IMG/VR virus record: IMGVR_UViG_3300021124_000016
Coordinates: 1 to 35,035 of that record
Source of the DNA: a virus
Taxonomy: Duplodnaviria > Caudoviricetes
Strand: one strand, 5' to 3'
DNA length: 35,035 nucleotides
The stretch's first letter is position 1; every line of letters starts with the position of its first letter. The position numbers and the translations under genes were made by a program. This document shows, piece after piece, positions 286 to 4,966 of this stretch. The notes beneath the pieces are model-generated. The model saw nothing but the letters and a program-made list of their open reading frames with translations, did not search any database and had not been told where the DNA came from.

Positions 286-611
286 CTAGTAACTCTTTCT
301 ATTTGTCTGTTGTTAGCTTGTTCTGTGCGCCAGGTTTCCCAACGCATTTCTGCACTTCTAATCTGCCATTTTAATGTTTCTGCTTGCTCTGTAGCTATTC
401 CTATAGCCTTACATAACTCTTGGTATTCAGGGCTACGGTATGCTTCCATTTCTTTAGCGGCAATGGATGCCCCATCCGCTTGCGCCATCTTGATTGCTTT
501 AAGACTATGCTTAAAGGCTTCGAGTTCCGCCAATTGACCCCTAGCCTTCGCATACTCAGGAGCTTTTTGATAGATAAATTCAATCGCATCATTAGGGTTA
601 TATTCTTTCAT
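282..611 (-). CDS. hypothetical helical/coiled-coil phage protein
   Basis: 109 aa ORF with GGAG RBS; ATG directly follows the stop of 612..1427. Confidence 0.8.
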   Translation of the reverse strand: MKEYNPNDAIEFIYQKAPEYAKARGQLAELEAFKHSLKAIKMAQADGASIAAKEMEAYRSPEYQELCKAIGIATEQAETLKWQIRSAEMRWETWRTEQANNRQIERVTR

Positions 612-1431
612 TTAACAATCTCCATGCTGTTGCTGCACAAAGTGGCACTTGTCCATTTCCAAGGGCTTTAAGTCTGTCCACCCTATCGGCCAACCCATCA
701 ACCACTCTACCCACGCTGGGTTCAAATTTCCAGAAGTCGGGTGAACTACCATACTGAGGGTAATTTGTTTGCCAATTTCTAATCTTCTTTGTATTGATGG
801 ATTGCTCATGTTTCCCCTGTTTTTCCAATCTTCCGCATTGGGTGTTGGAAATACTCTTTTTTTCAATGCTTTCCGACTGTTGCTGCCCCCATCTATTCCT
901 GTTGTGCATGGCGTGTGAAAGAAATCTAGATTGTTCGGTACTTTTTCCAACAATCCATATTCTGTCCCTTCTATGATTTGCTCCAACATCGGCTGCTGAA
1001 AGCACTCCCCATTCCGCATTGAACCCCAACGAGGCCAGGTCTGCAAGGACTCGTTCAAGTCCTCTAAAAGTGAGCATTGGACTGTTCTCAATGAATGTGT
1101 ATTTTGGTCGTACCTCGCCAATAATCCTTGCCATCTCTTTCCACATTCCTGATCGTTGTCCATCAAGTCCATCGCCTTTTCCTGCTGCGCTGATGTCTTG
1201 ACATGGAAATCCCCCAGATACAACGTCAACAATTCCTGCCCAAGGTTTTCCATCAAAGGTTTGAACGTCATCCCAAATTGGGAAAGTCGGGAGAAGTCCA
1301 TCATTTTGTCTGGCGCACAATACGCTTGCTGGATATGCTTCCCATTCAACGGCACAGACTGTTCGCCATCCAAGCAAATATCCCCCAAGTATTCCTCCAC
1401 CAGCGCCTGCGAAAAGAGCCAACTCATTCAT
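598..1431 (-). CDS. C5 cytosine DNA methyltransferase, alpha-type polypeptide (motifs I-VIII and X)
   Basis: LFAGAGG (I), VEW (II), DDV (III), GGFPCQDIS (IV), ENSP (VI), HRRDRIWIVG (VIII), LKALGNGQVP (X). No motif IX in this frame. Confidence 0.93.
   Translation of the reverse strand: MNELALFAGAGGGILGGYLLGWRTVCAVEWEAYPASVLCARQNDGLLPTFPIWDDVQTFDGKPWAGIVDVVSGGFPCQDISAAGKGDGLDGQRSGMWKEMARIIGEVRPKYTFIENSPMLTFRGLERVLADLASLGFNAEWGVLSAADVGANHRRDRIWIVGKSTEQSRFLSHAMHNRNRWGQQQSESIEKKSISNTQCGRLEKQGKHEQSINTKKIRNWQTNYPQYGSSPDFWKFEPSVGRVVDGLADRVDRLKALGNGQVPLCAATAWRLLNERI
612..1427 (-). CDS. overlapping +1-frame ORF; probable beta subunit of the C5 methyltransferase (TRD-like segments plus motif IX)
   Basis: 271 stop-free codons nested in the MTase gene. 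Contains FHTP/FPTPNAEDWK segments and LNPAWVEWLMGWPIGWT (motif IX-like). Starts at the second ATG of ATGAATG; stop abuts the next gene's ATG. Confidence 0.8.
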   Translation of the reverse strand: MSWLFSQALVEEYLGDICLDGEQSVPLNGKHIQQAYCAPDKMMDFSRLSQFGMTFKPLMENLGQELLTLYLGDFHVKTSAQQEKAMDLMDNDQECGKRWQGLLARYDQNTHSLRTVQCSLLEDLNESLQTWPRWGSMRNGECFQQPMLEQIIEGTEYGLLEKVPNNLDFFHTPCTTGIDGGSNSRKALKKRVFPTPNAEDWKNRGNMSNPSIQRRLEIGKQITLSMVVHPTSGNLNPAWVEWLMGWPIGWTDLKPLEMDKCHFVQQQHGDC

Positions 1432-1585: not shown

Positions 1586-1752
1586 CCTTTTTCCCCTTTG
1601 TTTCCAGCTTTCCAAGCTGTATAAAAATCTTGCAATAATTTTTCGTCTAATTCATATTTACTTATATACAACCTAAACTTTTGCAATCCCCATTCGTGCC
1701 GCCATTTGCACAACTGTCTTACTGCACACTCATGTTTAACTTGCTCATACAT
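1540..1752 (-). CDS. hypothetical protein
   Basis: 70 aa ORF in operon orientation, overlapping both neighbours. Confidence 0.6.
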   Translation of the reverse strand: MYEQVKHECAVRQLCKWRHEWGLQKFRLYISKYELDEKLLQDFYTAWKAGNKGEKGCLRGLLSQQQGLDI

Positions 1753-2090
1753 TTCTTTTTAAGAGTTTCGTATGTATCGTAACCATTACCCAAGATACCA
1801 AGCTCTTTTGCTTTTGCAACAATTCCATCATTGCTAAACATCCATCTTTTATCAATCTTTTCTTTCTTGGGTTCTATGACCAATTCATCTTCCCAGCGTT
1901 CTTGATTAAGCCAAGTAGCTGCATGAGGTATAAATTCTAATGCAGTTTCTTTAGCTTTCCAATATTGACAATGGTTTGCAATTGCTTTAGCAGCTTGTAG
2001 TTGTTGTTCTTCTGTTAATCTTGCCCAAACTTTTTTTGCTGCTGCTTTTGCTACTTTTCTTGGATACATCATCCAAAATTCATCAAACAT
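1719..2090 (-). CDS. replication-initiator C-terminal-domain-like protein (no N-terminal HTH)
   Basis: FDEFWMMYPRKVAKAAAKKVW...FIPHAATWLNQERWEDE is the pattern of phage replisome-organiser C-terminal domains. RBS AGGGGGAA; located downstream of the Cro-like gene. Confidence 0.7.
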   Translation of the reverse strand: MFDEFWMMYPRKVAKAAAKKVWARLTEEQQLQAAKAIANHCQYWKAKETALEFIPHAATWLNQERWEDELVIEPKKEKIDKRWMFSNDGIVAKAKELGILGNGYDTYETLKKKCMSKLNMSVQ

Positions 2091-2129
2091 AAGTTCCCCC
2101 TTAGTTTTAATTAATACTGTAGTTACTTA

Positions 2130-2350
2130 TAACTTATAGCCTTTAAAAGCTATCCCAAACGGTTTAAGCAAACCTAGCCTACCTAGATTTGCCTTCATAC
2201 GCCACCCAGTACGGAATCGCATAACCCGACAGTCTTGCATGGTATAGGCACTATCTTCGCCACCTATATTGCGCTGTTTCAACCATTACCCCCAGTAGCG
2301 CTTTTAATCCTATTCCCTGGTATGTCGTTAGAGCCTCGAAATAGGAAAGT
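2130..2350 (-). ncRNA. candidate structured non-coding RNA (or ssDNA origin structure) between the Cro-like and initiator-like genes
   Basis: At least five stems (+ coordinates 2308-2316/2338-2346, 2271-2275/2297-2301, 2243-2250/2261-2268, 2168-2177/2183-2192, 2136-2142/2147-2153). Their imperfections are G-U pairs on the minus strand. No ORF of 60 aa or more. Confidence 0.65.
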
Positions 2351-2357
2351 GAGTTTA

Positions 2358-2597
2358 CTACTTTTTTTCTAACTCAGGCCAAATGATATGCCAAGAATTA
2401 GGAAATATGTCTTTTCGTGTAATTAAACCATGTGAATCACGCTCTAGCGTTGCTGCTAGGAATAAAAACTTATCTGCTGGAATGTTGTTTTTTCGCCACA
2501 TTGATACTGCGTTTGGGGTTACATCAGCTAATTTAGCCACTTTTGTAGTTCCCCCCAACAAATCAATGATTGCTGAATCTGTTAGTTTTAGCTTCAT
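2358..2597 (-). CDS. Cro/YdaS-like helix-turn-helix regulator, probably leaderless
   Basis: IIDLLGGTTKVAKLADVTPNAVSMWRKNNIP HTH and C-terminal DIFP..W..IWPEL. Start moved to ATG 2597, 7 nt after a -10 box. Confidence 0.85.
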   Translation of the reverse strand: MKLKLTDSAIIDLLGGTTKVAKLADVTPNAVSMWRKNNIPADKFLFLAATLERDSHGLITRKDIFPNSWHIIWPELEKK

Positions 2598-2612
2598 GTA
2601 AATAATCTTACA
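2597..2612. promoter_or_regulatory. palindromic operator 1 (TGTAA-N6-TTACA)
   Basis: TGTAAATAATCTTACA covers the leftward -10 box and start codon. Confidence 0.7.
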
Positions 2613-2633
2613 TTGTATGTTGCTAATTTGCAA
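2605..2633 (-). promoter_or_regulatory. leftward sigma70-type promoter
   Basis: Minus strand TTGCAA-17 bp-TAAGAT; predicted +1 at or next to ATG 2597. Confidence 0.65.
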
Positions 2634-2640
2634 ATACTTG

Positions 2641-2668
2641 TTGACACCTATGTAATTATGCTTACAAT
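2641..2668 (+). promoter_or_regulatory. rightward sigma70-type promoter
   Basis: TTGACA-16 bp-TACAAT upstream of the recombination operon. Confidence 0.7.
2651..2666. promoter_or_regulatory. palindromic operator 2 (TGTAA-N6-TTACA)
   Basis: TGTAATTATGCTTACA covers the rightward spacer and -10 box. Confidence 0.7.
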
Positions 2669-2710
2669 CAATCTTATAGCAATTTCGCTATGTATTTTCG
2701 GGGGAACGAA

Positions 2711-2923
2711 ATGGGTGAATTACACCAACTGATGTTAGAACATGAAGAATTTTTAGAGTCAGCACTTGATGACATGGAATTTGGCGGTGAACTTAGCCAA
2801 GAGCAAGTCGACTGCATTCGTCAAGCTTGTGGCAAACCACGCAACAGCCAAGTAAATCAAGTATTGCGTGATGTCATTAATGACTTTGGCACAATCTTTG
2901 GAGGTAAAAATGCCTCAATCTGA
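2711..2923 (+). CDS. hypothetical protein, first gene of the rightward operon
   Basis: RBS CGGGGGAA before ATG 2711 (MGELHQ...). Confidence 0.7.
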   Translation: MGELHQLMLEHEEFLESALDDMEFGGELSQEQVDCIRQACGKPRNSQVNQVLRDVINDFGTIFGGKNASI

Positions 2924-4832: not shown

Positions 4833-4888
4833 TGGGGCTGGCTTGGTTTCCCCCGACCATCGCATCCTTCCGTGAGGAGTCAGCCCCA
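4833..4888 (+). ncRNA. candidate small RNA, three-way junction with C-rich anti-Shine-Dalgarno loop
   Basis: Outer stem TGGGGCTGGCT/AGTCAGCCCCA; inner hairpins TGGT-TTCCCCCG-ACCA and CCT-TCCGTG-AGG; perfect TATAAT at 4822-4827 just upstream. Confidence 0.6.
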
Positions 4889-4966
4889 CCCTAATGTTGC
4901 AAAAAAGATACATATTAGGGTTTCCCCTAGTTATACAGAACAAAAAACTTCAATAAATTACTTACA

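Follow-up and report, generated by a model that had tools for sequence, protein, structure and literature searches.

The window, a virus record of 35,035 bases rated complete, carries on its minus strand an element located between a cro-like gene and a gene for a 123-aa initiator-like protein. Comparative sequence analysis identifies this element as a triple-pseudoknotted non-coding RNA of about 195 bases belonging to the Rfam family RF02932 (Betaproteobacteria-1). A short word from within the element is repeated just behind its end, so that the RNA is likely to pair with the very DNA that encodes it, and on balance we lean towards a self-guided R-loop origin RNA that would act in cis in the manner of ColE1 and T4. 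RF02932 is a catalogued phage RNA family of as yet unexplained function; with this reading the orphan family would gain a function that is precise and cheap to test.

The window encodes an endolysin, Erf, SSB, an exonuclease, Cro and a methylase. The upstream neighbour of the element is the cro-like gene (2358-2597, minus strand; Pfam P22_Cro, E 2e-8). Downstream lies the 123-aa gene (1719-2090, minus strand), whose product has no Pfam match and resembles phage replication initiators in their C-terminal part only (phrog_270, E 2e-18 over profile positions 179-258 of 383). By the standard of a lambda O-type initiator, a profile match limited to these positions leaves the protein without an N-terminal DNA-binding domain, and in the short-gene loci examined the initiator-family domain begins at residue 1-30. 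The predicted structure of the protein is of low confidence (pLDDT 69, pTM 0.43), and a search with this model for fold similarity, with a DnaT/DnaD-like ssDNA-binding domain as the candidate, gave no significant match. Cumulative GC skew has its extremes at 33720 and 6699 and none at the element; skew was therefore rejected as support for an origin at this place.

The match to RF02932 extends from 2224 to 2347 on the minus strand and spans the full model (positions 1-120) with 95.5 bits at a gathering threshold of 49.4 bits (E 7e-17). A sequence-only reading of the window had described a structured element whose novelty would be lost on a strong match to a characterised Rfam family; the match is strong, and the motif itself is known. 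Rfam types the family as Gene; sRNA. We take Betaproteobacteria-1 to be the motif from Weinberg et al. 2017, and its original description reportedly mentions pseudoknots. A literature search for a function or a replication link of Betaproteobacteria-1 or RF02932 returned none. The main text of PMC5737381 does not name Betaproteobacteria-1, and the main text of PMC10690425 makes no mention of Betaproteobacteria, primase or helicase. No literature match was found for the 3' domain, the self-matching word, the mismatch asymmetry and the three-way slot described below; the supplement of PMC5737381 may already describe the pseudoknots and the gene context. Conservation runs about 70 nt past the end of the Rfam model at 2224, which gives a conserved element of about 195 nt (2153-2347) followed by a non-conserved AT-rich patch. 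P1, P2 and P4 of the window element are also present in the structure line of the model, which does not reach P5, P6 or the covarying repeat, and the Rfam scan output displays no pseudoknots where the window element has three.

Homologues were collected in several ways. With the element itself as query, blastn against 50,697 GenBank phages gave no match; a GC-rich homologue as query led to one Burkholderia plasmid and to one carrier in culture, Acidovorax phage AP1 (OM049504.1), in which the RNA comes immediately behind the primase gene. The 1.5-Mb Burkholderia replicon NZ_AP022319.1 matches the RNA in two places, one of which was read. Among 80 loci collected through the 123-aa protein, 51 contain the element. 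Scanning viral, metagenome and genome contigs with sequence patterns yielded 411 core loci, 244 of them distinct with flanks, from which 118 representatives were taken. Some letters of the core were preset in these patterns, and information therefore comes from the free positions alone. A pattern scan of GTDB gave 23 matches, and 4 of the 18 that were scanned with Rfam passed. A search of sequencing runs listed 24 runs, each sharing 0.05-0.06 of the words; the four runs examined, two of them RNA runs, contain only contigs of relatives. One 223-nt contig from an RNA run spans 2161-2358, though such contigs show neither ends nor strand. Two copies (L318 and L083) are without the P5-P6 part, possibly deleted or misassembled, and L318 retains the terminal word.

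The stems noticed from the sequence alone were all found in place on the minus strand, and by hand check the five imperfect positions of the main stems are indeed G-U pairs on that strand. Folding energy was modestly better than that of shuffled sequences on the minus strand (z -1.94, 7/200) and hardly so on the plus strand (z -0.73); for 2153-2347 z was -1.86. Single-sequence folding energy is weak evidence for structure and covariation decides. We assessed six helices, namely P2, P3, P4, P5, the L1/L2 kiss and the AUGG/CCAU pairing, in 45 sequences chosen by hand from 115 candidates. Paired cells amounted to 92% compared with 72.5% after shuffling, and 234 two-sided changes, spread over 23 of the 29 pairs, were counted compared with 64; none of 500 shuffles reached the observed value.

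P1 (2346-2338 with 2316-2308) was assessed by a script and has at least 5 bp in 111 of the 118 representatives. Its loop kisses that of P2 through CCAG (2320-2317) and CUGG (2295-2292), a contact missed by the sequence-only reading; this helix is 96% paired and changes on both sides in 3 of 4 pairs. P2 (2301-2297 with 2275-2271) covaries, as does the pseudoknot between AUGG in its loop (2286-2283) and CCAU (2242-2239), which bears out the tertiary pair ATGGT/ACCAT suggested before; a 5-nt complement is present here in 89 of 118 representatives compared with 10 after shuffling. The third pseudoknot lies within 2228-2268, where P3 (2268-2263 with 2248-2243) crosses P4 (2255-2250 with 2233-2228), both supported by covariation. 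P3 is 6 bp long and not 8 as first drawn. P4 (GAUAGU/ACUGUC) had escaped that reading; one free pair is paired in 117 of 118 representatives with four pair types. Outside the Rfam model follow P5 (2195-2224), which covaries and encloses the internal repeat copy, and the P6 hairpin (2192-2183 with 2177-2168), located between conserved GAAGG and GGCUAGG and present in 91 of 111 representatives. Three earlier proposals did not survive the comparison. The tertiary pair CGACA/UGUCG is paired no more often than in shuffles (52% and 52%; 7 of 118 with 10 expected), the hairpin with loop TGTCGG falls because UGUCG is the 3' strand of P4, and the last hairpin, ATAGCTT/AGGCTAT, is private, being found in 1 of 43 members of the window's subfamily. 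There is no conserved protein-coding frame, any frame being open in at most 24 of 118 representatives, and a hidden ORF was rejected on this count. Covariation, frames and gene context together uphold the central point of that reading, a structured, pseudoknotted, non-coding element at a replication locus.

The 3' domain contains a variable word of 6-10 nt inside P5 that recurs just past the last stem, the two copies changing in step. In the window the internal copy (CCGU..UGGG, 2204-2214, minus strand), our proposed guide, is located within P5, and the terminal copy (CCGU.UGGG, 2153-2162, minus strand), the proposed target, marks the 3' limit of conservation. In the 111 of 118 representatives that could be parsed (7 unparsed), the longest word shared by the two copies averages 6.6 nt compared with 4.1 nt for mismatched pairs of copies, and none of 10,000 permutations rose above 4.47. 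The words are purine-rich and diverse (71 distinct among 87), and the terminal word starts 11-15 nt after GGCURGG in 79 of 87. The window's own repeat is gapped and short, with a longest exact word of 4. Within its subfamily, the two letters after CC agree between the copies in 42 of 43 members: the window reads GT in both copies, 31 of the 43 read TC in both. Predicted exposure is no greater for the internal copy than for the terminal one (unpaired 0.47 and 0.55), and display in a loop was rejected as a general property of the internal copy, being found only in a subset closed by CGAC/GUCG. A search within the element for the complement of the repeat word gave none beyond chance (4.52 and 4.52); an intramolecular switch was accordingly rejected for want of a complementary partner.

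Mismatches between the two copies are strongly asymmetric. In 107 elements (the 111 parsed minus 4 that were mis-parsed), an internal G faces a terminal A 71 times, and an internal A faces a terminal G 7 times. Per internal base the A/G rate is 0.026 compared with 0.142 in permuted pairs (permuted minimum 0.10), a cut of about five-fold, whereas the G/A rate of 0.171 is unchanged from the permuted 0.186. Isolated mismatches show the same direction, with 12 of 35 being G/A (permuted maximum 24%) and 2 of 35 A/G. Much of the G/A excess lies within 1-4 nt after the conserved CC, and the representatives are phylogenetically non-independent. The U-G wobble class shows no asymmetry (U/C 5, C/U 5). 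Outside the set of elements compared, phage AP1 and the Burkholderia plasmid also have the repeat with a G/A difference. The asymmetry fits a pairing in which an rG-dT wobble would be tolerated and rA-dC excluded. A purge of A/G with tolerance of G/A is to be expected if the internal copy pairs with the complement of the terminal copy, a complement available only on the opposite strand, either in the template DNA or in an antisense RNA.

Upstream of the element, a predicted sigma70 -10 hexamer (TAAACT, 2352-2357, minus strand) lies 5 nt before P1 and is abutted by the stop codon of the cro-like gene. The window's -35 region is poor, and a consensus promoter scan did not list this site; the same scan listed no antisense promoter inside the element. 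A TAnnnT word is found at the -10 place behind different upstream genes, 5-7 nt before P1. Among short-initiator loci 15 of 17 have it, compared with 8 of 17 for a control position; among primase loci the count is just 1 of 44, and there the RNA mostly begins right behind the stop codon. Behind the element an AT-rich patch (2095-2152, minus strand) is a candidate unwinding element; its A+T content of 72% compares with 59% for the window and places it in the top 5% of 58-nt windows, while its sequence is not conserved. Across 111 representatives A+T rises from 0.42 to 0.56 over the 100 nt behind the element, a rise that may simply reflect intergenic DNA.

The transcription, hybrid and replication steps that we infer would run as follows. 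Transcription would start from the -10 box at 2352-2357 or reach the element by read-through, from cro in the window and from the primase gene elsewhere, and the 5' domain, P5 and P6 would fold while emerging. Once RNA polymerase passes 2162-2153, the internal copy would invade the template strand, its word pairing with the template at the identical downstream word and nucleating a persistent R-loop. The hybrid could keep the AT-rich patch open and/or give a primer after RNase H cleavage, and host or phage helicase/primase would be loaded there, in the window phage probably together with the 123-aa protein. The RNA would in effect replace the DNA-binding half and the iterons of an ordinary initiator. 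A hybrid of 6-10 bp is weak without help. A replication primer or R-loop had been among the options named earlier for this element; repeat covariation, mismatch asymmetry and slot exclusivity give it a real but indirect gain.

The gene context was analyzed in 87 diverse flanked representatives, 66 of which adjoin a replication gene. The RNA is found at replication loci of several unrelated types: 44 representatives come after a Toprim primase, which SF2 helicase and ParB-like genes mostly accompany; 17 adjoin the window's initiator family, 4 precede a primase-helicase and 1 a helicase. For 21 of the 87 no recognised replication gene was found within about 3-4 kb. The short initiator gene is present in 60 of 66 RNA-first loci with at least 2 kb downstream, by a hand count that includes redundant contigs. 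An RNA partner of the truncated initiator, another of the earlier suggestions, is weakened by these numbers, with 17 of 87 beside that gene and 44 behind a helicase-primase, and by two distant short initiator homologues that have no RF02932 in the surrounding 3 kb; a strict partnership of RNA and short initiator was rejected on these grounds. RF02932 is likewise absent from four Pseudomonas phage regions in which longer genes contain the domain. One of the 17 loci (L419), in which a 239-aa member of the initiator family lies beside the RNA on its upstream side, counts against the origin-RNA reading. A primer would not be needed in the half of the carriers that have a primase of their own, whereas opening could be. 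On a 7-kb island beside serS (L097/L522), the RNA is accompanied by genes for an integrase, AlpA and a winged-helix protein, and the 12 ORFs scanned there include neither a primase nor a helicase. In integrase-AlpA-winged-helix islands of this kind (L522:8400-15400, L448, L469) the RNA directly follows the winged-helix gene.

In 61 distinct gaps between cro and the short initiator gene we found RF02932 (element A) 45 times, a second element (B) 8 times and a third (C) 8 times, none of the gaps being empty or doubly occupied. None of 28 distinct loci with the same cro and a DUF1376-like full-length initiator carries A, B or C; these sisters were assigned by Pfam in two cases and by a motif match at the 28 distinct loci. 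B (L017:744-960, L002:2807-3000; 92 loci collected) and C (L065:14-250, L012:992-1230; 44 loci collected) are structured, about 200-230 nt long and have covarying stems by eye. Neither had an Rfam match at gathering level in the loci scanned, neither shows by eye a covarying repeat comparable to that of A, and their comparison with A for homology is by nhmmer only. Long hairpin leaders ending in a T run (D, L004:2676-2806; E, L017:584-755) follow a -10 box and precede B, C and sometimes A; they are possible attenuators or antisense control elements. In L230 and L283 the DUF1376 gene is immediately preceded by a short hairpin leader, which itself follows the same GTAGTAAA(A/C)T promoter-like word. 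The leader of the DUF1376 sisters, present in 25 of 28 distinct loci, has the letters AGGCUAGG in common with P6.

The self-guided origin RNA would work in a way comparable to ColE1 RNA II. Masukata and Tomizawa (1990) are said to have found that a G-rich segment of RNA II pairs with a dC stretch of the template. RNA II is a structured cis transcript with a persistent hybrid at its 3' end (PMC5043065) that opens and primes the origin via an R-loop (PMC5043065, PMC4555960). By analogy, the element would be a structured cis-acting transcript with a hybrid at its 3' end, and it has, as a signature in its letters, an upstream stretch of RNA that could pair with the template near the origin. It differs in length (about 195 nt, RNA II about 550 nt), in its variable mixed-sequence word, and in its phage and island context, often beside a primase. 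The window has no Rfam match to RNA II or RNA I and no sequence relation to ColE1, and the promoter scan gave no antisense promoter inside the element for an equivalent of RNA I. The T4 origins oriF (uvsY) and oriG consist of a promoter followed by an AT-rich unwinding element, and T4 uses its R-loop origin despite having its own primase (PMC3016281). Our element also precedes an AT-rich patch, a likeness of composition only. Unlike the element, T4 R-loops are described as sequence-independent, about 100 bp being sufficient, and involve no conserved folded RNA or repeat.

A cis-regulatory RNA of the early operon, whose fold, perhaps with a self-hybrid, would pause, terminate or antiterminate RNA polymerase in the manner of put, is in our estimate doubtful. 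Its position in the early operon, behind the -10 box or in some loci behind T-run hairpins, is what such a regulator would occupy, and pairing of the RNA with its template could equally serve termination. However, different lineages have unrelated genes downstream, and the replication genes lie upstream of the RNA in 44 of 87 representatives. No terminator-like site was found in window 1700-2800, and a regulator leaves the absence from the 28 full-length-initiator sisters unexplained.

An origin acting at the DNA level, with the structure forming on a displaced single strand for priming or helicase loading and the repeats serving as protein sites or for DNA-DNA pairing, seems to us unlikely. 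DNA hairpins, too, favour G-T pairs, and the strand bias of the imperfect pairs hence cannot separate RNA from ssDNA; the replication-gene context also fits this reading. Weinberg et al. (PMC5737381) allow that replication-linked motifs may act as ssDNA; they describe ARRPOF, GEBRO and PAGEV, conserved structures 223-349 nt in length that are associated with replication regions, as RNA or ssDNA. These three are plasmid-borne and belong to different Rfam families, none of which matched the window. Three pseudoknots and a near-invariant U-G pair (94 of 118) suit RNA, as does the -10 box 5-7 nt before P1 behind several upstream genes, and two protein sites would purge G/A and A/G equally, which was not observed. 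The antiterminator and ssDNA-signal options, both raised by the sequence-only reading, explain less than the R-loop reading.

The mismatch asymmetry would also arise if the variable word paired with an antisense RNA, as in a trans-acting sRNA or RNP subunit serving immunity, incompatibility or a short initiator or host protein. The Rfam type sRNA, the element's own promoter in the freshwater group and the resemblance of three mutually exclusive elements to incompatibility types agree with this. We nonetheless regard it as improbable: 43 of 44 primase loci are without an own promoter, the fixed spacing of the terminal copy points to cis action, and no single protein family accompanies the RNA. 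The compact knotted core with its invariant GGUGGCGAA (partly fixed by the search pattern) would suit a catalytic or selfish RNA, such as a ribozyme processing the early transcript with the repeat as a by-product. This reading is very improbable, since the element matches no Rfam ribozyme family and occurs as a single copy at a fixed locus with no linked RT or nuclease.

Returning to the self-guided R-loop reading, its widest form is one that we advance tentatively, as possible rather than probable. RF02932 would then make up the 5' half of a self-guided origin RNA of wide distribution. Its compact pseudoknotted fold would be the scaffold for a reprogrammable guide of 6-10 nt that invades the DNA template of the RNA itself, and the RNA would stand in for the DNA-binding half and the iterons of protein initiators. 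Tailed phages and small islands would possess at least three such RNA origin cassettes (A, B and C), each interchangeable with the others. If true, RNA-directed opening of origins, of which ColE1 and T4 are the cases known in detail, would be common in tailed phages and satellites, phages whose initiator has no DNA-binding half would be explained, and a small natural RNA would target DNA through a variable guide.

Some further features of the window were noticed during the analysis. A C5 methyltransferase gene (598-1431, minus strand) is fully overlapped by a second frame of 271 aa (612-1427, minus strand) with a start 4 nt away. A tmRNA-model match at 4834-4891 (plus strand; 14.5 bits, far under the cut-off) reflects only a GC-rich hairpin after the exonuclease gene. 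Overlapping divergent promoter-like sites at 2641-2668 (plus strand, 11/12) and 2655-2682 (minus strand, 9/12) separate cro from the rightward recombination operon, with no cI gene at this place.
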